Virus record (IMG/VR): IMGVR_UViG_2585427748_000008
Span: 1 to 17,927 of that record
DNA length: 17,927 nucleotides
Direction: 5' to 3' (one strand)
Origin: a virus
Taxonomy: Duplodnaviria; Heunggongvirae; Uroviricota; Caudoviricetes
Shown here: positions 2,448 to 17,927 of the stretch, piece after piece
Numbering within the stretch: the stretch's first letter is position 1
How the letters are laid out: each line of letters opens with the position of its first letter
Position numbers and translations under genes: made by a program
Notes under the pieces: model-generated
Seen by the model: only the letters and a program-made list of their open reading frames with translations
Told to the model about the DNA's origin: nothing
Databases searched by the model: none

Positions 2448-2997
2448 TCATCACTGGAAAGTGGAAAAACAGCCTGAGTGGTACGTGAAAGCTGTCAGAA
2501 AAACTATCGCGGCGTTGCCGGGGGGTTACGCTGAAGCTGCTGAGTGGCTGGATGTAACAGAGAACGCATTATTCAACCGCCTTCGTGCAGATGGCGATCA
2601 GATTTTCCCGCTGGGATGGGCAATGGTTTTACAGCGTGCGGCTGGCACTCACTACATTGCGGATGCTGTCGCACAGTCTGCTGGTGGGGTGTTCGTATCG
2701 CTTCCTGAAATTGAGGCAGTAGAGAACGCCGATATAAACCAGCGCCTGCTGGAAGTCATTGAACAGATCGGCAGTTATTCCAGACAGATTCGTTCAGCAA
2801 TCGAAGACGGTGTAGTGGAACCGCATGAGAAGACAGCAATTAACGACGAACTGTATCTTTCAATTTCGAAGCTCCAGGAGCATGCAGCACTGGTCTACAA
2901 AATCTTCTGCGCTCCAGAAAAGAGTAACGCCCGCGAGTGTGCAGCTCCGGGCGTCGTGGCGTCGATTGCTTCTGGTTGTGGAGAAACTAACGCATGA
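2440..2997 (+). CDS. CII-like / YdaT-family early regulatory protein
   Basis: GTG start preceded by AGGAGG; 185-aa ORF overlapping the cro stop by 8 nt; sits at the cII position; family call from memory. Confidence 0.6.
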   Translation: MGNHHWKVEKQPEWYVKAVRKTIAALPGGYAEAAEWLDVTENALFNRLRADGDQIFPLGWAMVLQRAAGTHYIADAVAQSAGGVFVSLPEIEAVENADINQRLLEVIEQIGSYSRQIRSAIEDGVVEPHEKTAINDELYLSISKLQEHAALVYKIFCAPEKSNARECAAPGVVASIASGCGETNA

Positions 2998-4139
2998 ATA
3001 GTTTAACGGCAAATAACCGTTTGTCGCAACAGCTGGTGGTCAGCGTCGCTGAACACCTGTTGTTACGGCATGAATGCAGATTACCAAATCACCTGGCTGT
3101 AAGTAACCACAGAGAACTTTACCTGACTGTGGGGGGCGAGTTGTGCAGGAACTTAACCGCTGGTTTCGTGACGGAAGAGGGCTTTATGTCCATGTTATTC
3201 GTTGGGAGCCAGAAACACAGCGCGTTATCTATCTTCGCAAAGACTACCCGCATGAGTGCTTTAGTCCTTTGTGGAAATTCAGGCGTGATTTTGTTGAGTG
3301 TGAAGGACCACCAGCATATTGATTCTGCAATTCCGGGACGTTACACTGTTCAGGCACCTTATAAAGCGGGTGCCGGGATTGGCGTCCTGAAATTCGCACA
3401 TGCGCATAACCGCGCTTCAGCGGTTTTTTTGCGCACGTTTCCTCACATCCAAATTATGGTGGGGCGTGCAGGGGCATCGAAAGATGCGCCGGGGTCATGT
3501 GCGACCGGTTACGCCAACCCTGTACGTCTCACCACCTCTGTGATTGGCGTCCCATGTGGTGAGTTTTCAAAATTCGCACATGAGGATGTCACTATGGCAA
3601 CCACCCCTACCCAAACTCACCCTAAAATTGATGTTATCCATGGGAAGGCTGTTACCTCTTCTTTGGCCGTTGCCGAATATTTCTGCAAGCAGCACAAAAA
3701 CGTTATTCAAAAAATCCAGACGCTTGAGTGCTCTGTTGAATTCACTGAGCTGAATTTTCAGCCCAGTGATTACACCGATTGCACAGGCCGCAAACTCCCT
3801 TGTTACCAAATCACCCGCGACGGTTTTGCGTTTCTTGCCATGGGCTTCACGGGGAAACGTGCTGCCCGGTTCAAAGAGGCATACATCAATGCCTTTAACC
3901 AGATGGAGAAACAGCTTTCAAATCCCTCTGTACTGAGCGACGTTGCACATAACGCCAGCGTTCTCTATTCCTACATTTCATCAATTCATCAGGTCTGGCT
4001 GCAGCAGCTTTATCCCATGTTGGCAAAAGCCGAATCCCCGCTGGCTGTAAGTCTGTATGACCGCATCAACGACGCGGCGCTACTGGCCAGTCTCATAAAT
4101 TTGTCGCTGAACCCTTCAGAGGTAAGGGGGCGCAAATGA
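2994..4139 (+). CDS. Rha-family phage regulatory protein; Rha domain in the C-terminal ~182 aa, with a likely independent start at 3594
   Basis: Frame is open for 381 codons from an ATG overlapping the upstream stop (ATGA). Residues from 3594 (MATTPTQTHPKIDVIHGKAVTSSLAVAEYFCKQHKNVIQKI...) look like a Rha N-terminus and have GAGGA 7 nt upstream. Coding status of 2994-3593 is uncertain (see findings). Confidence 0.6.
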   Translation: MNSLTANNRLSQQLVVSVAEHLLLRHECRLPNHLAVSNHRELYLTVGGELCRNLTAGFVTEEGFMSMLFVGSQKHSALSIFAKTTRMSALVLCGNSGVILLSVKDHQHIDSAIPGRYTVQAPYKAGAGIGVLKFAHAHNRASAVFLRTFPHIQIMVGRAGASKDAPGSCATGYANPVRLTTSVIGVPCGEFSKFAHEDVTMATTPTQTHPKIDVIHGKAVTSSLAVAEYFCKQHKNVIQKIQTLECSVEFTELNFQPSDYTDCTGRKLPCYQITRDGFAFLAMGFTGKRAARFKEAYINAFNQMEKQLSNPSVLSDVAHNASVLYSYISSIHQVWLQQLYPMLAKAESPLAVSLYDRINDAALLASLINLSLNPSEVRGRK

Positions 4140-4360
4140 TCCGGAATATTTTCAAACGGTTTACCAATCATACTTTCCGTTGTCCTCGTCCGGGTCAGTG
4201 GTACACCACGCCTGCAGGGCATGTTCTACGTGTTAGCCTGGTTGACCGTGAATGTCAGAAGGTGATTTGTGAACCGCTGGGCCGTAATTACCGCATCAGT
4301 ATGCCGCTTATAGCCTTTTGCTCCGGAAAAAACATGAAGCATCTCGGAGGTGCAGCATGA
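4136..4360 (+). CDS. Small hypothetical protein (74 aa, Cys-containing), translationally coupled
   Basis: ATG overlaps the Rha stop (ATGA) and its own stop overlaps the next ATG (ATGA at 4357-4360); no recognisable family. Confidence 0.4.
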   Translation: MIRNIFKRFTNHTFRCPRPGQWYTTPAGHVLRVSLVDRECQKVICEPLGRNYRISMPLIAFCSGKNMKHLGGAA

Positions 4361-5175
4361 GTATGGAGCTGATGGTTAAAGCGATGAAAATTCGAGTGGG
4401 TAATCCATTGCGAAAACTGGTTCTGATCAAGCTGGCTGATAATGCCAGCGATCAGGGTGAGTGCTGGCCCAGCTACCAGCATATTGCTGACCAGTGCGAG
4501 ATTAGCAAACGTTCTGTGATGAATCATATTGCGGCCCTTTGTGAGTCCGGGCTGGTAAAAAAAGTCACCCGGAAAGGTGAAAAAGGTAACTCAAGTAATA
4601 TCTATCTCCTTCATCTTGATGGTGCAGGAGATTCACTAGGGGGTAGTGCAAATAATTCACTATCTGGTGCAGCAAATTCACCAGGTAGTGCAGGAGTTGC
4701 ACCAGGGGGTGGTGCAGGAGATTCACCCAGAACCAGTCACTCTTTTGAACCAGTCAAAGAACCAGTCAATGAACCAATAGCTGTTGGTGCATCTGCTGAT
4801 GAGTCTGTGCGAGTTCGTTCAAACCGACCGGAATACTCTCCGGAGTTTGAGCAGGCATGGCTGGCATACCCCAAACGTGCTGGTGGCAATTCAAAATCTG
4901 CAGCCTTCAAAGCCTGGAAAGCCCGTTTGAATGAGGGGGTAAAACCCGAAACCATGCTGGAAGGTGTGAAACGCTACGCGGGCTGGGTATCTGCGATGGG
5001 TAACAGCGGCACACAATTTGTGAAACAGGCTGTCACGTTCTTTGGTCCGGATCGTCATTTCGAAGAATCCTGGGAAGTTCCTGCGGTATCTGCAGCCAGA
5101 CGCGAGGACCCGTACTTCAAAGCCAGTTACGACAACGTGGACTACAGCCAGATCCCGGCAGGATTCAGGGGGTGA
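4357..5175 (+). CDS. Replication initiator, lambda O-like (N-terminal HTH, replisome-organiser-type C-terminus)
   Basis: ATG 6 nt after GGAGG; N-terminal HTH-like segment (LIKLADNASDQGECWPSYQHIADQCEISKRSVMNHIAALCESGLV); the gene contains an in-frame iteron array as in the lambda O gene. Confidence 0.7.
   Translation: MSMELMVKAMKIRVGNPLRKLVLIKLADNASDQGECWPSYQHIADQCEISKRSVMNHIAALCESGLVKKVTRKGEKGNSSNIYLLHLDGAGDSLGGSANNSLSGAANSPGSAGVAPGGGAGDSPRTSHSFEPVKEPVNEPIAVGASADESVRVRSNRPEYSPEFEQAWLAYPKRAGGNSKSAAFKAWKARLNEGVKPETMLEGVKRYAGWVSAMGNSGTQFVKQAVTFFGPDRHFEESWEVPAVSAARREDPYFKASYDNVDYSQIPAGFRG
4621..4778. repeat. Iteron array (putative phage replication origin) inside the O-like gene
   Basis: About five ~22-bp units built on GGTGCAGGAGATTCAC (exact copies at 4621-4636 and 4711-4726, variants between), followed by three GAACCAGTCA repeats at 4730-4770. 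Confidence 0.55.
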
Positions 5176-5177
5176 TC

Positions 5178-5666
5178 ATGAGTCTTTTGAATGAAGTTCA
5201 GAAATTCATTGAAGCCCATCCGGGGTGTACTTCCGGAGACATTGCGGATGCTTTTGCAGGTTACTCACGGCAGCGCGTTCTGCAGTCAGCAAGCAAGTTA
5301 CGTCAGAGTGGGCGTGTGGCTCACCGTTGTGAAGGAGATACACGCAGACATTTCCCGCGCCTGACTGAGAGAGCACAGGAGCCGGAACCACAACCAGTTC
5401 GTGAAACCAGACCTGTGCGCAATTTCTGTGTCGGCACTAACGACCCGCAGGTGATTTTGTGCCTGACTCGCCAGGCGGAAGAACTGGAGTCCAGGGGCTT
5501 ATTCCGTCGAGCTGCAACGGTGTGGATGGAGGCATTCCGTGAAAGCCACTCCCAGCCAGAACGAAACAATTTTCTGGCGCATCGTGAGCGGTGCTTACGG
5601 AAAAGCAGCAAGCGCGCTGCATCGGGTGAAGAGTGGTATCTGTCAGGGAATTACGTGGGGGCTTAA
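5178..5666 (+). CDS. PerC-family (Pch-like) transcriptional regulator with N-terminal extension
   Basis: ATG 3 nt after the O-like stop with G-rich RBS; C-terminal segment RGLFRRAATVWMEAFRE resembles the GLWRRAA..W motif I associate with PerC/Pch regulators (from memory). Confidence 0.5.
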   Translation: MSLLNEVQKFIEAHPGCTSGDIADAFAGYSRQRVLQSASKLRQSGRVAHRCEGDTRRHFPRLTERAQEPEPQPVRETRPVRNFCVGTNDPQVILCLTRQAEELESRGLFRRAATVWMEAFRESHSQPERNNFLAHRERCLRKSSKRAASGEEWYLSGNYVGA

Positions 5667-6319
5667 TGAGTAATAAATATTGCCAGGCGCTGGTGGAGCT
5701 GCGGAACAAACCAGCCCATGAACTGAAGGAAGTGGGCGATCAGTGGCGCACGCCGGACAACATTTTCTGGGGAATTAACACCCTGTTTGGCCCGTTTGTT
5801 CTGGATCTGTTCACTGATGGTGATAACGCCAAATGTGCCGCTTATTACACTGCGGAAGACAACGCGCTGGCGCATGACTGGTCTGAACGTCTTGCGGAGC
5901 TTAAAGGTGCTGCCTTTGGTAATCCCCCGTACAGCCGCGCCAGTCAGCATGAGGGGCAATACATCACCGGCATGCGTTACATCATGAAACATGCCAGTGC
6001 CATGCGTGATAAAGGCGGGCGCTATGTTTTCCTGATCAAAGCTGCCACCAGCGAAGTGTGGTGGCCGGAAGATGCAGATCATATTGCTTTTATTCGCGGG
6101 CGTATTGGTTTTGAACTGCCTGCCTGGTTTATCCCGAAAGACGAAAAGCAGGTGCCAACAGGTGCTTTCTTCGCTGGTGCTATTGCTGTTTTCGACAAGA
6201 CCTGGAAGGGACCGGCAATCAGCTACATAGGGCGCGATGAACTTGAGGCATGTGGTGAGGCGTTTCTGGCGCAGGTTCGCCAGCAGGCGGAAAAACTGGT
6301 CAGGGAGATGGCGGCATGA
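5666..6319 (+). CDS. Phage DNA N6-adenine methyltransferase (Dam-type)
   Basis: ATG overlaps the upstream stop (TAATG); contains the FGNPPY motif typical of N6-adenine methyltransferases; 217 aa. Confidence 0.85.
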   Translation: MSNKYCQALVELRNKPAHELKEVGDQWRTPDNIFWGINTLFGPFVLDLFTDGDNAKCAAYYTAEDNALAHDWSERLAELKGAAFGNPPYSRASQHEGQYITGMRYIMKHASAMRDKGGRYVFLIKAATSEVWWPEDADHIAFIRGRIGFELPAWFIPKDEKQVPTGAFFAGAIAVFDKTWKGPAISYIGRDELEACGEAFLAQVRQQAEKLVREMAA

Positions 6320-6642
6320 CGACGTTAACTCAATGCCAGCAGCAGGTGCTGGATATGCTGATTTCTTATCAGAAAGAACGTGGCTTCCCGCCAACCAATC
6401 AGGAGGTGGCAACCATGCTGGGATACCGTTCGGTGAATGCAGCGGTGGAGCATCTTCGCGCACTGGAGAAAAAAGGCGTCATCACGATAAAGCGTGGCGT
6501 GGCCCGGGGGATAACGCTTCATACTGCGATGAAGGACGACGACAGCGAGGCGGTCGGGATTATCCGCGCACTGCTTGCCGGTGAGGAAAACGCAAGGCTG
6601 CGTGCAACCCACTGGTTACATGAGAGGGGCCTGAAAGTATGA
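6316..6642 (+). CDS. LexA N-terminal-domain-like DNA-binding protein (no peptidase domain)
   Basis: ATGA-coupled start; 108-aa ORF with winged-helix-like QQVLDMLISYQKERGFPPTNQEVATMLGYRSVNAAVEHLRALEKKGVI. Confidence 0.6.
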   Translation: MTTLTQCQQQVLDMLISYQKERGFPPTNQEVATMLGYRSVNAAVEHLRALEKKGVITIKRGVARGITLHTAMKDDDSEAVGIIRALLAGEENARLRATHWLHERGLKV

Positions 6643-7034
6643 AGCTAATACTGCCTTTTCCGCCCAGCGTGAACACGTACTGGCGACACCCCAACAAAGG
6701 GGCGTTTGCTGGTAAGAGCCTGATAAGCGCGGCGGGGCGAAAATTCCAGAGCGCGGCGTGTGCAGCAATAGTTGAGCAGTTACGTCGTCTGCCGAAACCA
6801 ACGTCGGCACCTGCTTCAGTGGAGATCGTGTTGTTTCCTCCGGATAACCGGATCCGCGATCTGGACAACTATAACAAGGCGCTGTTTGACGCCCTGACCC
6901 ACGCGGGTGTGTGGGAAGACGACAGTCAGGTGAAAAGAATGCTGGTGGAGTGGGGACCGGTTATCCCGGAGGGGAAGGTCGAGATCACTATCAGTAAGTA
7001 CGAAAAAGCGAGTTGCAAATTAGCAACTCGGTAA
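6639..7034 (+). CDS. rusA: Holliday-junction resolvase RusA
   Basis: ATGA-coupled start; 131-aa sequence MKLILPFPPSVNTYWRH...DLDNYNKALFDALTHAGVWEDDSQV matches the RusA family pattern (from memory). Confidence 0.9.
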   Translation: MKLILPFPPSVNTYWRHPNKGAFAGKSLISAAGRKFQSAACAAIVEQLRRLPKPTSAPASVEIVLFPPDNRIRDLDNYNKALFDALTHAGVWEDDSQVKRMLVEWGPVIPEGKVEITISKYEKASCKLATR

Positions 7035-9026: not shown

Positions 9027-9383
9027 ATGCGTGATATGTATGAAGTAATGGATCGTTGGGGAGCTTGGGCTGCTTCAGACAATAGCGGAGTGGACTGGCA
9101 GCCGATAGCGGCTGGTTTCAAGGGACTTTTACCTCATGGCAAAAAGTCACGGATTCAGTGTGATGATGACGAAGGCATCATGATAGACAGTTGTGTGGCT
9201 CGGTTGAGAAGGTATAAACCAGAGGAATATGAGCTCATCATCGCCCACTTTGTTATCGGTATCTCATTACGTACTATTGCGAAGAAGAGAAAATGCTCTG
9301 ATGGCACAATTAGGAAGGAACTGCAAACTGCAATGGGGTTTGTTGACGGCTGTTTAGCAATGTTAGCTTATAGTATGGCATAA
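9027..9383 (+). CDS. Q: Late-gene antiterminator Q (phage 82/21-type family)
   Basis: ATG with GGAGA 6 nt upstream (track start 9012 is an upstream TTG); MRDMYEVMDRWGAWAA...WQPIAAGFKGLLP...CSDG pattern typical of this Q family (from memory); last gene of the nin-like region. Confidence 0.75.
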   Translation: MRDMYEVMDRWGAWAASDNSGVDWQPIAAGFKGLLPHGKKSRIQCDDDEGIMIDSCVARLRRYKPEEYELIIAHFVIGISLRTIAKKRKCSDGTIRKELQTAMGFVDGCLAMLAYSMA

Positions 9384-10577
9384 AAAATAAAATAGATTTA
9401 CTGCCGATTTTTCAAAAAAGACTGGGAACTGTTTATATCCAACGTAAATAAGGCCTCCATAAAACATGGCTGATGCGAGATATTTAACAGTTCTCATCCT
9501 TTTTTTAGCTTTATCAATCAAACCTGTAATGCTACTCTTAATACTATCTGCATTATCTTTGATTTCTTTATTTTCTTCAAACTTTAAATACTTATCGAAA
9601 GCGGACTCCACTCGAGAACGTAAGTTGTCGAATGTTTCATTGAATATCTCAATAGAAATGTAATTGACTTTTTTTATCATCCAAAGTCCTGCGATAATCA
9701 ATATTGCTTCGGTTGTTTCATTAGCCTTCACTAAGCCACCAGCAGCTATTAATGCACCGGGAATAGTCAATGCTTTTGTCTGATTAGATGATATGAATTC
9801 GTTAATTTTACTCGTGAACTCAAGATTTTTCTCATCGAGTTCGTTAAGAATTTTATTTACAGAAAACCTCTTTGTGTAAATCTCATATAGTTCATCATAT
9901 TTTTTCCTGACGAGTTCAGTAGAGTTAAGCAAGTCAAAGAAATTGAACGTACCATTTGCTTTAAATACTTCGTTTATGGCTGAGCGTATAACGAGCTTGC
10001 GCTCGCTTTTGTGTAAATCATTGATTTTTATTGTGTCGAGAAGCTCCTTTATAATTTCATATTTAAGAGACGAGTTCGATAAGCGATTAATCTCGCTATA
10101 TTGTAAAAAATGCGTGAGTTCGACTGTATAACTTTTGTCTTCATTGGTGAAAAATAAGACAGAGCAGTCACTGTTATGATGATCAGCAATTAATGAAAGG
10201 ATATCTTTCCACATAAAGAAAATATGGATTTTTTCGATGCTTTCATTCTTAGAAGTAGGGAGTATTAACGGCGTTCCGATGATATAATTTTTCGGAAGAG
10301 CGTTTTGGGTGTTTACTCTAGACCAAAAAGACTCAACATTCTCATAAATTATAGCGTCATCCCAAGATGAAGCTTGGCGATCTAGCCAAATTTCATTATT
10401 TTCGATGCAGGTTGTTGCCTTTTTATAACCTATAGATTGTAACAGTCTAATTATTTCAGAACTATTTACAATAACAATGCTTTCTTCAAGACTTATGACA
10501 GTGTAGTAGCCCTCAACTCTGCTTGAGGCTCCGTTAATAATCTGCGCTAATCTTGATAAGTCATCAGCAATTGTCAT
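9363..10577 (-). CDS. Hypothetical protein with hydrophobic C-terminal segments (predicted membrane protein); second gene of an AT-rich cassette
   Basis: 404-aa ORF; start 2 nt after the stop of the upstream cassette gene; hydrophobic stretches ALTIPGALIAAGGLV...AILIIAGLWMI and YLASAMFYGGLIYVGY; sampled GC ~28-42% versus ~58% in flanks; 3' end overlaps the Q 3' end by 21 nt. Confidence 0.7.
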   Translation of the reverse strand: MTIADDLSRLAQIINGASSRVEGYYTVISLEESIVIVNSSEIIRLLQSIGYKKATTCIENNEIWLDRQASSWDDAIIYENVESFWSRVNTQNALPKNYIIGTPLILPTSKNESIEKIHIFFMWKDILSLIADHHNSDCSVLFFTNEDKSYTVELTHFLQYSEINRLSNSSLKYEIIKELLDTIKINDLHKSERKLVIRSAINEVFKANGTFNFFDLLNSTELVRKKYDELYEIYTKRFSVNKILNELDEKNLEFTSKINEFISSNQTKALTIPGALIAAGGLVKANETTEAILIIAGLWMIKKVNYISIEIFNETFDNLRSRVESAFDKYLKFEENKEIKDNADSIKSSITGLIDKAKKRMRTVKYLASAMFYGGLIYVGYKQFPVFFEKSAVNLFYFLCHTIS

Positions 10578-10579
10578 TA

Positions 10580-11755
10580 TTAGCTGTCTCTATATCTTTT
10601 GAGTTCATCATAATTTGCCTGACTCAATTTTATCACAATTTCGCATTTGTTGTCAGTGAGAATTACAGGCTTATTTGACTTTTCGTCTCCAATAGCTCCA
10701 CGCATTATTTTCAACTTAAAATTATTGTCGTTATCTGCCACTTCAATTGTAAGCGCGCTTTCAGCTGCTTTAGGAGTTGGTTCAAATTGAGGGTCAATCT
10801 GGAAACCATTAAGATTAACAAAATCGACAAACGTTCCCTTACATTTGTGTGAATCAGTCAGGCATGAGTCAATTATTTTTGAAATATCCTCTATCTTAAC
10901 GGACTTATTTCCGTGTTTATCTTTTGATTTTTTTTCCAGTAAGGATTTAACTTCATTGTCAATAGTATCACGCAGTACACGACCGAGTGAGTTTTTACTA
11001 GCAAAAATATCTATAGCACTGAATAATTGCTGAATGCTTCTTTTATTGTCCGAATCATGTCGGCAACCTAATGAGTCTTTGAAAAAATCGCTTTTAGATT
11101 TACCTTGCAAGAAATGTACATATGAGTCACCCTTGTTTTCTGGATAACTGGCTTCGAATAAAGTTAAATCGAACATCGCAGCCTGCCGTAAGGCATCGGT
11201 ATTAATTGGATTTAATCTTGTTGGGGTCAACTTATCCGAATCAAAGTCATAGGCGCTTTGTTTATCAACCATTACGATTAGAAGTTTCCCCAAATCCTCT
11301 GGTTCGGTAGACTTATAGTGGATGAAAACAACGCTCCCCCCCTGAAGTTGGGCAACTCTCGATTCGTTATTAGCATTATGTTTAAGCTTCTCTATTATAG
11401 CTCTAGATAAATCAATGAATTCATTATTTTTATTAATGTATTTTTTTAGGATCGTAGGAATGGATGAAGGGTTGTGATCTGAGTCTAGGAAGTTATGAAA
11501 TTTGTTTTTTCGGCTAAATTTTTTCTCAATTCTGGTTATGAATTCAGATGTGACTTCATTTTTTAGATCCCAAACTTCACCTAATCGATAATCAAATGCT
11601 CTTGAATCATTTTTTTCAAGATTTGCTGTTACAGCACCAATAGGAAAGTACGATTGTTTGCCCAGCACTACAACATGAGGCGTGGCACCGCATTTATCGC
11701 AAGCTACAGTTGGGTCGTCAAGAACATTGCCACATTCTAAACAAGTTATATCCAT
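10580..11755 (-). CDS. Hypothetical protein with N-terminal CxxC-X10-CxxC zinc ribbon and NdpA/YejK-like (NA37) region; first gene of the cassette
   Basis: 391-aa ORF; Cys at residues 5, 8, 19 and 22 (CLECGNVLDDPTVACDKCG); GGSVVFIHYKS and YVHFLQGKSKSDFFKDSLG resemble motifs I recall from nucleoid-associated protein NdpA (unverified); a TATAAT hexamer lies about 12 nt upstream of the ATG on the minus strand. Confidence 0.7.
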   Translation of the reverse strand: MDITCLECGNVLDDPTVACDKCGATPHVVVLGKQSYFPIGAVTANLEKNDSRAFDYRLGEVWDLKNEVTSEFITRIEKKFSRKNKFHNFLDSDHNPSSIPTILKKYINKNNEFIDLSRAIIEKLKHNANNESRVAQLQGGSVVFIHYKSTEPEDLGKLLIVMVDKQSAYDFDSDKLTPTRLNPINTDALRQAAMFDLTLFEASYPENKGDSYVHFLQGKSKSDFFKDSLGCRHDSDNKRSIQQLFSAIDIFASKNSLGRVLRDTIDNEVKSLLEKKSKDKHGNKSVKIEDISKIIDSCLTDSHKCKGTFVDFVNLNGFQIDPQFEPTPKAAESALTIEVADNDNNFKLKIMRGAIGDEKSNKPVILTDNKCEIVIKLSQANYDELKRYRDS

Positions 11756-11875
11756 TATATATCCCGAATTATAAGAATGAATTTTTATGTGGCTGAAAAT
11801 TCTATCAAAACACTAACGCGTACGCAAAAAGTATTGTATTGTGTTAAGAGTGGTTACTTCGCCACACAACTTAAC

Positions 11876-11897
11876 CCCGCCACTGAGCGGGTTTTTT
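11876..11897 (+). terminator. Intrinsic terminator-like hairpin (CCCGC-CACTGA-GCGGG followed by TTTTTT); candidate tR'-type site
   Basis: 5-bp GC stem 11876-11880 / 11887-11891 followed by a 6-T run; lies in the non-coding stretch between the cassette promoter side and the FaeA-like gene. Confidence 0.4.
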
Positions 11898-12021
11898 GTA
11901 CCTGTAAACTTGGTGCAGTACAGTAAACACGCTGGTGGTCGTGAATACTGGCTTTTTATCTTGCTGGCTTTTTAGACAAGAGTTATTGGTATGTCACGTT
12001 AACCGGAAAGGGTAAAAAGAC

Positions 12022-12219
12022 ATGCTGAAACAGCAGGATATGACAGAAACCGCCAGAGTTGTGTTTGATGAATTAAGCGTTACCGAACCGGCGACAGTCG
12101 GGGAGATTGCGCAGAATACTTACCTTTCACGCGAACGCTGCCAGTTAATACTGACCCAGCTTGTTATGGCGGGTCTGGCAGACTATCAGTGCGGTTGTTA
12201 CAGACGCCTTCAGTCCTGA
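12022..12219 (+). CDS. Small winged-helix regulator, FaeA/PapI-like
   Basis: 65-aa ORF; TVGEIAQNTYLSRERCQLILTQLVMAGLADYQ resembles PapI/FaeA-type wH proteins (from memory); its stop is embedded in a strong terminator hairpin. Confidence 0.5.
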   Translation: MLKQQDMTETARVVFDELSVTEPATVGEIAQNTYLSRERCQLILTQLVMAGLADYQCGCYRRLQS

Positions 12220-12353: not shown

Positions 12354-13067
12354 ATGGCTGTTGTCTGTTCAGTTATCATGGTTTGCTCCCCAATTAATAT
12401 TTTTCTTGAAAAGGATACGTTGTCACTTAAGCCAGGCTCAGTTGTTCTGGCCACCAAATGCATCAGGGAGCTTTTCCTTATGCATTATGGCAAAGTTAAA
12501 ATTGTCGATATAAGCGAATCCGTCGTAAGTCAATATCTGGAAAGTCAGCATAAGCTGACGAGGACTCGTCTGACTGACATTCCGCTTTACCTGTTGCTGG
12601 AACCCAACAATCCTGCGTTGGCTGCGGCTTTAATTACCAGCCAGGGATTTTCCGGAGAGGCCACGGATATGTTTCTTATGATGGCCTGCCTGTCTCTGTT
12701 TGAAACAGATGAACGGATGTCATTGTTTTTAAGTGGATGTTTATCCAGCATAAGTGCCAAAGTCAGGGCGATAATTCAGACAGATATATCAGCAAGCTGG
12801 ACGCTTGGTGCGATTGCTCTACAGTTGCATATGAGTGAGAGTTTGTTAAAGACAAAACTGAAAAATGAAGGGGGCATGTTCAGTCGCTTGTTGCTGGAAG
12901 AGCGGATGCGTGTTGCTGTAAATATGTTATGTTCCCGGCATGGATATGGACAGGCTATAGCAGAAAAATGCGGTTATTCAAGCAGGTCCTACTTTATTTC
13001 TGTATTTCACCGCTATTATGGCTTCCCGCCAGACAGATATGTATCCAGGCAAGGGCTTGATTATTGA
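12354..13067 (+). CDS. AraC-family transcriptional regulator (AppY/GadX-like prophage regulator)
   Basis: 237-aa ORF with C-terminal AraC-type HTH (WTLGAIALQLHMSESLLKTKLK...AIAEKCGYSSRSYFISVFHRYYGFPP); a TATAAT hexamer sits at 12314-12319 upstream. Confidence 0.8.
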   Translation: MAVVCSVIMVCSPINIFLEKDTLSLKPGSVVLATKCIRELFLMHYGKVKIVDISESVVSQYLESQHKLTRTRLTDIPLYLLLEPNNPALAAALITSQGFSGEATDMFLMMACLSLFETDERMSLFLSGCLSSISAKVRAIIQTDISASWTLGAIALQLHMSESLLKTKLKNEGGMFSRLLLEERMRVAVNMLCSRHGYGQAIAEKCGYSSRSYFISVFHRYYGFPPDRYVSRQGLDY

Positions 13068-13095: not shown

Positions 13096-13171
13096 GGCCC
13101 TTTAGCTCAGTGGTGAGAGCGAGCGACTCATAATCGCCAGGTCGCTGGTTCAAATCCAGCAAGGGCCACCA
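13096..13171 (+). tRNA. ileZ: tRNA with CAT anticodon (Ile2-lysidine type or Met), 3' CCA encoded
   Basis: Manual fold: 7-bp acceptor GGCCCTT/AAGGGCC, D-arm TAGCTCAGTGGTGAGAGC, anticodon loop CTCATAA, T-arm CTGGTTCAAATCCAG, discriminator A then CCA. Symbol given by analogy to the ileZ-argN-argO cluster of Stx phages. Confidence 0.85.
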
Positions 13172-13178
13172 TCACATA

Positions 13179-13252
13179 CCGCCATTAGCTCATCAGGAAA
13201 GAGCGCCAGCCTTCGAAGCTGGTTGCGCGGAGTTCGGGTCCCCGAAGGCGGT
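13179..13252 (+). tRNA. argN: tRNA-Arg-like (anticodon TCG), aberrant: one acceptor-stem and one T-stem mismatch, no encoded CCA
   Basis: Manual fold: acceptor CCGCCAT/AAGGCGG (6 of 7 pairs), D-stem GCTC/GAGC, anticodon stem CCAGC/GCTGG with loop CTTCGAA, T-arm CGGAG-TTCGGGT-CCCCG (4 of 5 pairs). Confidence 0.6.
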
Positions 13253-13268
13253 TCATTATCTGTATCCT

Positions 13269-13345
13269 GCGTTGTTAGCTCAGCCGGACAGAGCAATTGC
13301 CTTCTAAGCAATCGGTCACTGGTTCGAATACAGTAGAACGCGCCA
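13269..13345 (+). tRNA. argO: tRNA-Arg (anticodon TCT), with one acceptor-stem and one T-stem mismatch; CCA encoded
   Basis: Manual fold: acceptor GCGTTGT/AGAACGC (6 of 7), D-arm TAGCTCAGCCGGACAGAGC, anticodon stem ATTGC/GCAAT with loop CTTCTAA, T-arm ACTGG-TTCGAAT-ACAGT (4 of 5), discriminator G then CCA. Confidence 0.75.
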
Positions 13346-16125: not shown

Positions 16126-16285
16126 TAACCCATTTCAACGAGAAAATCCTATGTCAGAAATAAAATCGCTGGTCACTGCTGAGGCAGTGAAGGAAGTTCT
16201 GCGCTCTGAAGAAGTCCGGAGCGCACTGAAACGTAACCGGCTCATTTAAACCGTCTGGTCTGTTTCCTCCGGCTCTACAAAAATA

Positions 16286-16963
16286 ATGTCCATCATTTTT
16301 AATGGACACTATCGTATGAAACACCGGACCTGGATCACTGAAGCTTTACGTCTTCACTTTGAAGAACATTTACCCCGGGTTGTGGCCGGGCGTCGCCTGG
16401 GTGTACCAAAATCAACAGTTTGTAGTATGTTCGTGCGCTTTCGGAGAGCTGGCCTTTCGTGGCCTTTGCCCGCAGGCATGTCGGAGCAGGAACTTGATGC
16501 CTGCCTTTACGGACAATTTTCCACGGTACCAGTCGTACGTCCTGAAAGCACCGTTATATCCGAAGCCCCCGTGGTAAAAAAACGTCCCCGGCGGCCCAAC
16601 TTCCCTTATGAGTTTAAAATCGCCTTAGTGGAGCAGTCACTGCAGCCCGGAGCCTGTGTGGCGCAGATCGCCCGGGAAAACGGAATCAACGATAACCTGC
16701 TCTTCAACTGGCGCCATCAATACCGGAAAGGTGGCCTGCTGCCTTCCGGAAAAAATATGCCGGCACTGCTTCCCGTGACGTTAACGCCGGAGCCGGATAA
16801 TAAAATCCCGGCCCCCGCACAGGAACCAGAGCAGATAAATACACCGTCCGACAGTCTGTGTTGTGAGCTGGTTCTGCCGGCCGGAACTCTCAGGCTTAAA
16901 GGTAAACTGACGCCGGCGTTATTACAGACACTTATCCGCGAAATAAAAGGGAGCAGCCACTGA
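16286..16963 (+). CDS. tnpA: IS66-family accessory protein TnpA (orf1)
   Basis: 225-aa ORF (alternative ATG at 16316) with HTH-like segment (RRLGVPKSTVCSMFVRFRRAGL); immediately precedes and overlaps the tnpB start. Confidence 0.8.
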   Translation: MSIIFNGHYRMKHRTWITEALRLHFEEHLPRVVAGRRLGVPKSTVCSMFVRFRRAGLSWPLPAGMSEQELDACLYGQFSTVPVVRPESTVISEAPVVKKRPRRPNFPYEFKIALVEQSLQPGACVAQIARENGINDNLLFNWRHQYRKGGLLPSGKNMPALLPVTLTPEPDNKIPAPAQEPEQINTPSDSLCCELVLPAGTLRLKGKLTPALLQTLIREIKGSSH

Positions 16964-17310
16964 TGATATCTCTCCCTGCAGGTTCGCGTATCTGGCTGGT
17001 TGCAGGTATCACCGATATGCGAAATGGCTTTAACGGCCTGGCATCAAAAGTTCAGAACGTCCTGAAGGATGACCCGTTCTCCGGACACCTGTTCATCTTC
17101 CGCGGACGCCGGGGTGACCAGATAAAAGTGTTGTGGGCTGACAGTGACGGACTGTGCCTCTTCACCAAACGCCTGGAGCGGGGCCGCTTCGTCTGGCCAG
17201 TCACCCGTGACGGCAAGGTGCACCTTACTCCGGCTCAGTTATCCATGCTTCTTGAAGGTATCAACTGGAAGCACCCGAAACGAACGGAACGCGCTGGAAT
17301 CCGCATATAA
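16963..17310 (+). CDS. tnpB: IS66-family TnpB (orf2)
   Basis: 115-aa ORF MISLPAGSRIWLVAGITDMRNGFNGLA...; size and sequence pattern typical of IS66 Orf2 (from memory); start overlaps the tnpA stop. Confidence 0.9.
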   Translation: MISLPAGSRIWLVAGITDMRNGFNGLASKVQNVLKDDPFSGHLFIFRGRRGDQIKVLWADSDGLCLFTKRLERGRFVWPVTRDGKVHLTPAQLSMLLEGINWKHPKRTERAGIRI

Positions 17311-17329
17311 CCCGTTGTAAAGTGAGGAT

Positions 17330-17927
17330 ATGGACACCTCACTTGCTCATGAGAACGCCCGCCTGCGGGCACTGTTGCAGACGCAACAGGACACCATCCG
17401 CCAGATGGCTGAATACAACCGCCTGCTCTCACAGCGGGTGGCGGCTTATGCTTCCGAAATCAACCGGCTGAAGGCGCTGGTTGCGAAACTGCAACGTATG
17501 CAGTTCGGTAAAAGCTCAGAAAAACTTCGTGCAAAAACCGAACGGCAGATACAGGAAGCACAGGAGCGAATCAGCGCACTTCAGGAAGAAATGGCGGAAA
17601 CGCTGGGTGAGCAATATGACCCGGTACTGCCATCCGCCCTGCGCCAGTCTTCAGCCCGTAAACCGTTACCGGCCTCACTTCCCCGTGAAACCCGGGTTAT
17701 CCGGCCGGAAGAGGAATGCTGTCCTGCCTGTGGTGGTGAACTCAGTTCTCTGGGATGTGATGTGTCAGAGCAACTGGAGCTTATCAGCAGCGCCTTTAAG
17801 GTTATCGAAACACAACGTCCGAAACAGGCCTGTTGCCGGTGCGACCATATCGTGCAGGCACCAGTACCTTCAAAACCCATTGCACGCAGTTATGCCGGAG
17901 CGGGGCTTCTGGCCCATGTTGTCACCG
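17330..17927 (+). CDS. tnpC: IS66-family transposase TnpC, N-terminal part only (runs off the window end)
   Basis: ATG preceded by GAGGA; open frame to the window end (MDTSLAHENARLRALLQ...; coiled-coil-like N-terminus then CPACGGEL...CCRC zinc-finger-like motif); absent from the ORF track because no stop lies in the window. Confidence 0.85.
   Translation, partial: MDTSLAHENARLRALLQTQQDTIRQMAEYNRLLSQRVAAYASEINRLKALVAKLQRMQFGKSSEKLRAKTERQIQEAQERISALQEEMAETLGEQYDPVLPSALRQSSARKPLPASLPRETRVIRPEEECCPACGGELSSLGCDVSEQLELISSAFKVIETQRPKQACCRCDHIVQAPVPSKPIARSYAGAGLLAHVVT

Follow-up and report, generated by a model that had tools for sequence, protein, structure and literature searches.

YfdN, a two-domain PerC-family protein encoded in the early operon of a lambdoid prophage

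A gene whose product carries a PerC-type motif lies among the early genes of a lambdoid prophage. The question it raises is whether this product acts as a prophage-borne regulator of chromosomal virulence loci, the role implied by a preliminary description of the locus, or serves the phage itself. The window, by which we mean the whole stretch of 17,927 nucleotides that was analyzed, is the early/nin/Q region of the prophage, and several Korean clinical isolates are 100% identical to it across 16.2 kb.

Gene identity and domain architecture

The open reading frame is almost certainly a genuine PerC-family yfdN gene that encodes a winged helix, a linker, and a PerC core (Table 1). Both the list of open reading frames and the sequence show it to be uninterrupted on the plus strand, with a TAA stop codon at 5664–5666. 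The NCBI annotation begins at a GTG codon that overlaps the upstream stop codon as GTGA. The downstream ATG, assumed in the preliminary description, appears to be the more plausible start, because an AGGGGG sequence (5167–5172) precedes it by 5 nt and the proteins of relatives likewise begin with M-S-L. Residue numbers are nevertheless given in the numbering of the 164-residue form.

At the DNA level, yfdN is 100% identical to the copy in O104:H4 and to copies in other strains, which are named "yfdN: PerC family transcriptional regulator" by NCBI. Of 5426 complete E. coli genomes, 2668 carry a copy with at least 90% identity. In K-12, the protein encoded by b2357 in the cryptic prophage CPS-53 is 95% identical; this entry is named "uncharacterized protein YfdN" and is flanked by yfdO, a fragment in the position of the replication gene, and by yfdM, a methyltransferase fragment. 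The gene is also found in phages mEp460, SfV (orf40), SfII, SfIV, ST64B (sb43), and Stx2c/Stx2a, and is conserved as an early gene among temperate phages of enterobacteria, both lambdoid and P22-like. A literature search found no functional study of YfdN, the gene appearing only in screens and gene lists, and the sole phenotype found was glycogen deficiency upon overexpression, recorded in a genome-wide screen. In one study, yfdN was described as "the K12 unique PerC homologue" and was deleted to obtain a clean background (Uhlich et al. 2018; PMC5931665).

Table 1. Coordinates of yfdN, its encoded domains, and the other genes discussed.
Feature	Position	Strand	Description
Replication-initiator gene	4357..5175	+	HTH_36 N-terminus, DnaD/primosomal-like C-terminus (Pfam, PHROG, annotation)
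yfdN coding sequence	5178..5666	+	162 aa from ATG 5178; 164 aa from NCBI GTG 5172
N-terminal winged helix (predicted)	5184..5357	+	Residues 5–62; three helices and a beta-hairpin wing; pLDDT ~87–92
Acidic, proline-rich linker (predicted disordered)	5358..5444	+	Residues 63–91; pLDDT <50 at 65–83
PerC core, basic three-helix domain (predicted)	5445..5609	+	Residues 92–146; includes GLFRRAATVW at 5496–5525
C-terminal tail, W-Y-L-S-G-N-Y-V-G	5610..5663	+	Subfamily-specific motif; low pLDDT
Dam-type N6-adenine methyltransferase	5666..6319	+	PF05869, 1.1e-45; TIGR01712, 1.7e-76
65-aa open reading frame	12022..12219		Weak generic winged-helix matches; best TrmB, E 0.003, below threshold
AraC-type gene	12354..13067		HTH_AraC, E 2.4e-13; 90% identical to Sakai Sp4 ECs_1087

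In the AlphaFold2 model, which has a mean pLDDT of 80.5 and values above 87 for both domains, YfdN is predicted to consist of two folded modules with a floppy acidic linker between them. This two-domain plan is kept in an alignment of 31 relatives with as little as 23% identity, which were obtained by searching 1.84 billion representative proteins; a genome scan with a smaller alignment (A2) yielded 5 loci.

The N-terminal module shows the predicted secondary structure of a winged helix, with helices at residues 5–15, 21–27, and 33–46 and strands at 49–54 and 57–62. For this domain, Foldseek searches of the PDB returned winged helices of the ArsR/SmtB, MarR, BlaI/MecI, and DsrD types over 56–69 residues (rmsd 1.5–3 Å, probability 1.0, E ~1e-2). 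Although the N-terminal 60 residues superpose on MarR, ArsR/SmtB, and BlaI/MecI proteins within this range, YfdN is devoid of the dimerization and ligand-binding elements of these families. When the domain alone was compared with Pfam, no significant match was obtained, including to FaeA/PapI. Among relatives, weak matches to Penicillinase_R, PaaX, MarR_2, and FaeA were seen, the last in a single relative (E 0.008). The module is hence a winged helix at the level of the fold only, without membership in a sequence family, and as a separate domain it does not explain away the PerC match of the remainder of the protein. Basic residues recur in the recognition helix and wing of the 31 relatives (arginine in 13 and lysine in 3 at position 33, arginine in 15 at position 38, arginine or lysine in 24 at position 42, and arginine in 20 at position 51), and the residues exposed on the winged helix differ from one relative to another.

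The linker ranges from 5 to 29 residues in relatives and has a mostly negative net charge. The PerC core that follows is predicted to form three helices (residues 92–107, 111–124, and 128–145). Its net charge lies between 0 and +8 and is positive in 30 of the 31 relatives, and L105, R113, A114, and C141 are invariant in the alignment. Foldseek searches with the core alone gave only weak matches to TPR/MIT-like three-helix hairpins (E >0.5). These matches are best taken as a description of the predicted fold rather than as homology, and such a hairpin would suit a protein-interaction module. The tail carries the subfamily motif W-Y-L-[AS]-G-N-Y-x-G, in which at least 90% of relatives retain G159 and G163 and 74% retain L157.

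Relationship to PerC, Pch, and ANR proteins

The PerC-type motif on which the preliminary description relied, GLFRRAATVW, occupies residues 109–118, and the family assignment is borne out by profile searches. Residues 98–149 of YfdN match the Pfam PerC family (PF06069) with a score of 34.5 bits (E 2.4e-8), which exceeds the curated cut-off of 22.6, and a search with just the C-terminal 77 residues gave 36.6 bits. Each of the 31 aligned relatives, the most distant at 23% identity, matches the same Pfam family, and full-length YfdN matches PHROG 1324, "transcriptional activator," at 1.6e-77. The core residues LE-x2-G-x2-RRA-x3-W ... R ... C are shared with PerC and PchA/E. More fully, YfdN has in common with PerC and PchA/B/C a core of about 50 residues, A-x2-LE-x2-G-[LF]-[YFW]-RRAA-x2-W ... 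R-x6-R-x2-C, and L105, G109, R113, A114, R131, and C141 are invariant in an alignment of YfdN with PerC, PchA, PchD, and PchE.

For pairwise comparison, the sequences of EPEC PerC (89 aa), PchA (104 aa), PchD (89 aa), and PchE (90 aa) were taken from annotated E2348/69 and Sakai records. By BLASTP, YfdN is 37% identical to PerC over 46 residues (E 9e-7), 39% to PchA over 44 residues (E 5e-7), and 38% to PchE over 52 residues (E 2e-9), the best match among named homologues. The proposed alignment with Pch proteins thus holds for PchA and PchE; for PchD, the pairwise comparison gave no significant match. A profile search of a large database with the PerC-domain alignment retrieved mostly YfdN-type proteins and no named Pch. 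A blastn search of E. coli genomes with perC DNA found EPEC plasmids only. Comparison of YfdN with PDB sequences gave only chance-level matches (E 0.36 and above). PerC-like groups were reportedly defined by Porter et al. in 2005.

YfdN differs from the characterized family members in several respects. PerC and PchA/D/E are single-domain proteins of 89–104 residues, whereas YfdN has an additional N-terminal winged helix and linker. Its Pfam match extends only over profile positions 5–56 of 90. The C-terminal half of PerC/Pch proteins (...EIKQAV...MG...FR.Y; profile positions ~57–90), which goes with their size of ~90–104 residues, has no counterpart in YfdN. Conversely, the WYLSGNYVG tail is a feature of YfdN that PerC and PchA/D/E lack. 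YfdN belongs to a distinct two-domain phage subfamily of the PerC family. PerC/Pch and YfdN are alike in being encoded on mobile elements and in having a basic helical domain, but their genetic settings differ: PchA/B/C come from EHEC prophages, and in Sakai Sp4 pchA stands alone within the late region, on the opposite strand, while perC closes the perABC cluster of the EPEC plasmid pEAF, whereas yfdN is embedded in a phage early operon.

The only mechanistic data on the family concern Pch at the LEE1 promoter. Activation of LEE1 by Pch requires that silencing by H-NS, StpA, and Hha is present, and Pch lowers H-NS occupancy both in vivo and in vitro (PMC4764244). In the same study, H-NS was not co-precipitated with PchA, and no Pch–H-NS complex was detected. 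Other members behave differently. PchD and PchE, which do not belong to group 1, show minimal or no activation of ler (PMC5931665), and PchE represses curli and adhesion. EcCIMP1_025, a PerC-like protein of a PICI, represses LEE1 (PMC11773190). [quoted passage not shown] Like PerC, both PchE and the PICI PerC-like proteins are single-domain proteins, of about 90 residues, that have no winged helix and differ from YfdN in their C-terminal half.

A second relationship is suggested by ANR proteins such as Aar and Rnr (NCBIfam NF033650), a family of small anti-activators whose binding partners are AraC-family regulators and H-NS. The only informative NCBIfam match of YfdN is ANR_neg_reg, with 20.2–21.9 bits and E values of 1e-4 to 4e-4, below the cut-off of 32. 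PerC, PchA, PchD, and PchE likewise have ANR as their best or only informative NCBIfam match, over nearly the whole 54-position model, and the scores of all five proteins (13.6–21.9 bits) fall under this curated cut-off. Among 37 PerC-domain sequences, ANR was the best or only informative NCBIfam match in 27 (best E 2e-9). The ANR signature, A-x3-E-x7-A-x3-W-x2-A (PMC4983702), is in register with YfdN, such that A10, E14, A22, W26, and A29 correspond to A102, E106, A114, W118, and A121. Both the ANR proteins and the PerC core of YfdN are predicted to be three-helical; they differ by one residue in the spacing from arginine to cysteine in helix 3, and ANR proteins stand alone at about 60 residues, whereas the YfdN core is part of a two-domain protein. 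ANR matches were also noticed by the authors who described the PICI PerC-like protein (PMC11773190). Judged from these sequence comparisons, PerC and ANR likely form one superfamily, though this is not proven.

Operon context and the neighbors of yfdN

As stated in the preliminary description, yfdN is located in the replication/nin region. The initiator gene ends 2 nt before its ATG, its stop codon overlaps the start of the dam gene (TAATG), and further downstream lie the nin-type LexA-DBD and RusA genes. A scan of positions 4100–6700 detected no promoter-like sites and no terminator-like sites on the plus strand; three terminator-like sites were found, all on the minus strand. yfdN lies inside the early rightward operon. 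The gene order CI–Cro–CII–x–Rep–YfdN–(methyltransferase)–LexA_DBD–RusA is kept in Citrobacter, Kosakonia, and metagenomic phages, where identity falls to 27–47%.

Of 312 related loci, 311 have a replication-initiator-type gene as the left-hand neighbor of yfdN, and in equally many the initiator stop and yfdN start codons overlap or are at most 3 nt apart, despite the occurrence of at least four initiator types that swap within single YfdN clusters. This arrangement would fit a replication accessory factor, either as a partner of the initiator at or near the origin or as a bridge to the host primosome or helicase, and YfdN would then fill the slot that is taken by P in lambda or by a DnaC-like loader in other lambdoid modules. 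Consistent with such a function, the yfdN-bearing modules contain no helicase-loader gene, and iteron-like repeats (4622–4770) are situated ~400 bp upstream, within the initiator gene. PchE of Sakai Sp7 likewise adjoins mobile-element replication genes (primase and SSB), and the PICI EcCIMP1 carries a DNA primase together with its PerC-family gene (PMC11773190). However, Pfam, PHROGs, NCBIfam, PDB sequence, and Foldseek searches revealed no similarity to lambda P, DnaC, DnaT, or DnaD, and all functional data on the PerC family concern transcription. In addition, the pairing of one YfdN cluster with different initiator types argues against a specific protein–protein partnership. Overall, a role in replication appears unlikely.

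On the other side, the census (323 loci in 20 YfdN clusters at 70% identity, with neighbors picked by a longest-ORF rule) shows a methyltransferase gene directly downstream of yfdN in 272 loci (84%), and in 18 of the 20 clusters most loci have this arrangement. Three unrelated families are represented and swap within single YfdN clusters: Dam-type (PF05869; 161 loci), MT-A70 (PF05063; 91 loci), and D12 with or without a C5 domain (PF02086; 20 loci). In 34 loci (10.5%), the LexA-DBD gene follows directly without a methyltransferase, as in a Citrobacter locus (L006), and in 11 loci the methyltransferase is replaced by a conserved protein of 250 residues. The latter gave no Pfam match, PDB sequence match, or informative name; judged by eye, its ALDNGAFS stretch may recall a motif of the tRNA-guanine-transglycosylase/DpdA type. 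In some phages, the yfdN position is taken by single-domain PerC genes encoding 84–91 residues. At one such locus, a separate 76-aa open reading frame lies just upstream.

This census could point to YfdN working with, or controlling, the DNA-modification enzyme encoded next to it, either by setting the timing or level of methyltransferase expression, as C-proteins do in restriction-modification systems, or by preparing or targeting phage DNA for modification. The swapping of families behind one YfdN cluster and the overlapping stop and start codons (TAATG or ATGA) are in line with this, as are one open reading frame (L219) in which winged helix, PerC, and MT-A70 are naturally fused and singleton PerC–Dam fusions in E. 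coli. In addition, pchD lies beside the PAPS-reductase-like ibrA, with ybdM next to ibrA. On the other hand, YfdN is kept in the loci that have no methyltransferase, a single protein interface for three unrelated methyltransferase folds is improbable, and single-base errors at the overlapping codons could account for the rare fusions. The pattern may also reflect no more than a cargo slot that is conserved within a mosaic phage operon. We consider a dedicated function in modification to be as doubtful as one in replication.

Two further genes of the prophage had been proposed to encode regulators of the host type, which together with yfdN would have made three. This was partly borne out, in that the PerC-type and AraC-type assignments hold and the FaeA/PapI-like assignment of the 65-aa open reading frame does not, since that frame has no FaeA/PapI match. 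The AraC-type gene and its Sakai Sp4 counterpart, ECs_1087, occupy equivalent positions ahead of the ileZ-argN-argO tRNA genes, and the product of the former is of the type of the prophage Psr/PatE regulators (PMC10877973). The 65-aa product looks like a small winged helix. A FaeA/PapI identity was considered both for this product and for the N-terminus of YfdN and was rejected for want of a significant match. A PADLOC search with YfdN, the AraC gene, and the AT-rich two-gene island returned no match. Positions 9363–12000 of the prophage are AT-rich.

YfdN as a candidate early-phase modulator

YfdN is most likely a phage early-phase regulator and not a virulence regulator expressed in the lysogen, because its gene is internal to the early operon and has no promoter-like site close to it. 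From this position, it follows that yfdN should be expressed on prophage induction or phage infection and not in the quiescent lysogen. In the best-supported model, the protein made at that stage would be tethered to DNA and would modulate transcription that depends on nucleoid proteins. The predicted winged helix would supply the contact with DNA, and the PerC core would disturb silencing complexes of H-NS, StpA, and Hha, as was reported for Pch. Alternatively, the core might bind a regulator directly, in the manner of ANR proteins. In either case, phage DNA would remain accessible to transcription, both early and late, as well as to replication and modification.

The relief of H-NS/StpA/Hha silencing at LEE1 by Pch (PMC4764244) is the precedent for this model, and by analogy with it we hold counter-silencing by YfdN to be a tentative proposal, with clearly less than an even chance of being correct. 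Several observations speak against the model. H-NS could not be co-precipitated with PchA by the authors of that work, YfdN has none of the PerC/Pch C-terminal half that may be required for activity, the surface residues of its winged helix vary among relatives, and its ANR score is below the curated cut-off. The position beside replication genes and methyltransferases fits other roles equally well. Taking identity and mechanism together, the explanation as a whole stands at about even chances.

Expression in the lysogen as an activator of virulence or acid-resistance loci (ler/LEE1 or GAD promoters) in the manner of PchA/B/C would agree with the PerC-family membership of YfdN, with the activation of ler by PchA/B/C and PerC, and with the Psr/PatE-like AraC regulator in the same prophage, but this role, which the preliminary description implied, is very improbable given that yfdN has no promoter-like site of its own in the early operon while pchA is a separate reverse-strand gene, that about half of E. 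coli carry yfdN, including the LEE-negative K-12 and O104:H4, that YfdN is missing the C-terminal half of PerC/Pch, and that PchD and PchE barely activate ler and the PICI protein acts as a repressor of LEE1.

As a gene with a PerC-family label, yfdN was already known, and a named, annotated, and very common gene carries, as found, little weight. What the present analysis adds is the two-domain architecture, the resemblance between PerC and ANR, and the tight Rep–YfdN–methyltransferase arrangement. More speculatively, and with a probability that we place low, proteins of the YfdN type, acting together with the replication initiator and the adjacent modification enzyme, may represent the phage form from which the PerC/Pch/ANR superfamily arose, and the PerC/Pch virulence regulators would then be N-terminally truncated, domesticated derivatives. 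Such an ancestral protein might, for example, clear or exclude nucleoid proteins such as H-NS from newly replicated phage DNA for modification and transcription, or it might control the methyltransferase. The finding would matter if the mechanism of the PerC family became approachable through its phage form. YfdN is a widespread and genetically tractable form, present in phages that infect K-12 (mEp460, SfV), with a separable domain of the DNA-binding type. Together, the Rep–YfdN–methyltransferase arrangement and the PerC–ANR resemblance give concrete hypotheses that could tie the counter-silencing of virulence genes in EPEC and EHEC to an ordinary early function of phages.

The gene position downstream of yfdN

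The position directly 3′ of yfdN, the two-domain PerC-family gene, is occupied in the window (5666-6319) and its relatives by DNA methyltransferases from three unrelated families. In the census of 323 loci with yfdN relatives, the following gene encoded a Dam-type enzyme in 161, an MT-A70 enzyme in 91, and a D12 enzyme, with or without C5, in 20; the loci compared at this position include L008, L015, L017, L018, L020-L022, and L103-L336. The families interchange even inside a single YfdN cluster (70% identity), and the yfdN stop overlaps the start codon of the methyltransferase.

In 11 loci, the position is filled instead by a protein of 250 aa (MIHYHGGPITPDTCALKAWKGRHAFISFA...) that is highly conserved. 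Pfam and PDB sequence searches with this protein returned no match and its database names are uninformative; it is present in more than 6000 database clusters.

Regulator and enzyme are also found within one reading frame. The 367-aa ORF of locus L219 scores 27.4 bits for PerC and 84 bits for MT-A70 in Pfam, and PerC and Dam are likewise joined in two singletons from E. coli, the proteins P0020 and P0022. These three ORFs could be genuine fusions, or they could reflect single-base errors where the stop and start codons overlap.

The next gene in the window encodes a 108-aa protein made up solely of a LexA DNA-binding domain. The S24 self-cleavage domain is missing, and the protein may be a non-cleavable LexA mimic. 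The gene is kept two genes 3′ of yfdN, even in relatives at 27% identity.

Features of the window and of compared loci
Feature	Location	Strand	Details
Early-operon protein, 381 aa	window 2994-4139		Ash (PF10554) and Rha (PF09669) domains
Iteron-like direct repeats	window 4622-4770		inside replication-initiator gene
GTGCAGGAGATTCAC-type repeat units	window 4622-4726		3 copies
GAACCAGTCA repeat units	window 4730-4770		3 copies
LexA DNA-binding domain-only protein, 108 aa	window 6316-6642		PF01726, 2.9e-19
AT-rich island, two reverse-strand genes	window 9363-11755	-	between Q and tRNA region
65-aa ORF	window 12022-12219		PHROG 331, unknown function
AraC-type regulator	window 12354-13067		Psr/PatE type
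tRNA-Ile, tRNA-Arg, tRNA-Arg	window about 13096-13345		after AraC-type gene
250-aa protein gene	L168:3444-4196		also L277, L284, L286, L302, L305, L307, L308, L312, L316, L319
Winged helix, PerC core and MT-A70 in one 367-aa ORF	L219:3001-4104		Pfam

Other features of the window

The iteron-like repeats within the replication-initiator gene probably constitute the phage origin; the protein region encoded across them is a low-complexity Gly/Ser/Ala linker of the initiator.

The AT-rich island has a GC content of 33-38%, compared to about 50-55% in its flanks, and encodes a 403-aa protein, for which a Pfam search gave no match, and a nucleoid-associated protein of 390 aa that is NA37/NdpA-like. 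In recent NCBI annotations, the two products are named "anti-phage protein" and "nucleoid-associated anti-phage protein"; a PADLOC search of both genes returned no match. The 65-aa ORF had been proposed in the preliminary description to be a FaeA/PapI-like gene, a proposal that is not borne out: its winged-helix matches are all weak, the top one being TrmB (E 0.003). The neighboring AraC-type regulator shares 90% identity with ECs_1087 of Sakai Sp4, and O157 prophages carry the same succession of AraC-type regulator and three tRNA genes. The 100% alignment of the best-matching genomes stops at 16232, or 91% of the window, and the remaining 1.7 kb (16233-17927), which lies within the lysis region, forms a mosaic junction.

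PerC-family genes in other settings

Transcription-regulator genes adjoin PerC-family genes on E. coli plasmids (L003:2186-3225 and L004:2189-3321) and in perABC of pMAR2 (L010:17176-18756). In the first two, the divergent neighbor encodes a helix-turn-helix protein of roughly 245 aa; in pMAR2, the transcriptional regulator gene perA belongs to the same cluster as the PerC-family gene. This arrangement recalls the pairing of ANR anti-activators with AraC-family regulators. In Sakai, pchD lies directly 3′ of ibrA (PAPS-reductase-like) and ybdM in SpLE1 (L013:5943-8146), and pchE directly 3′ of primase and SSB genes in Sp7 (L014:1-2044). The surroundings of pchD and pchE thus show that DNA-modification or replication neighbors recur for PerC-family genes outside the yfdN context.
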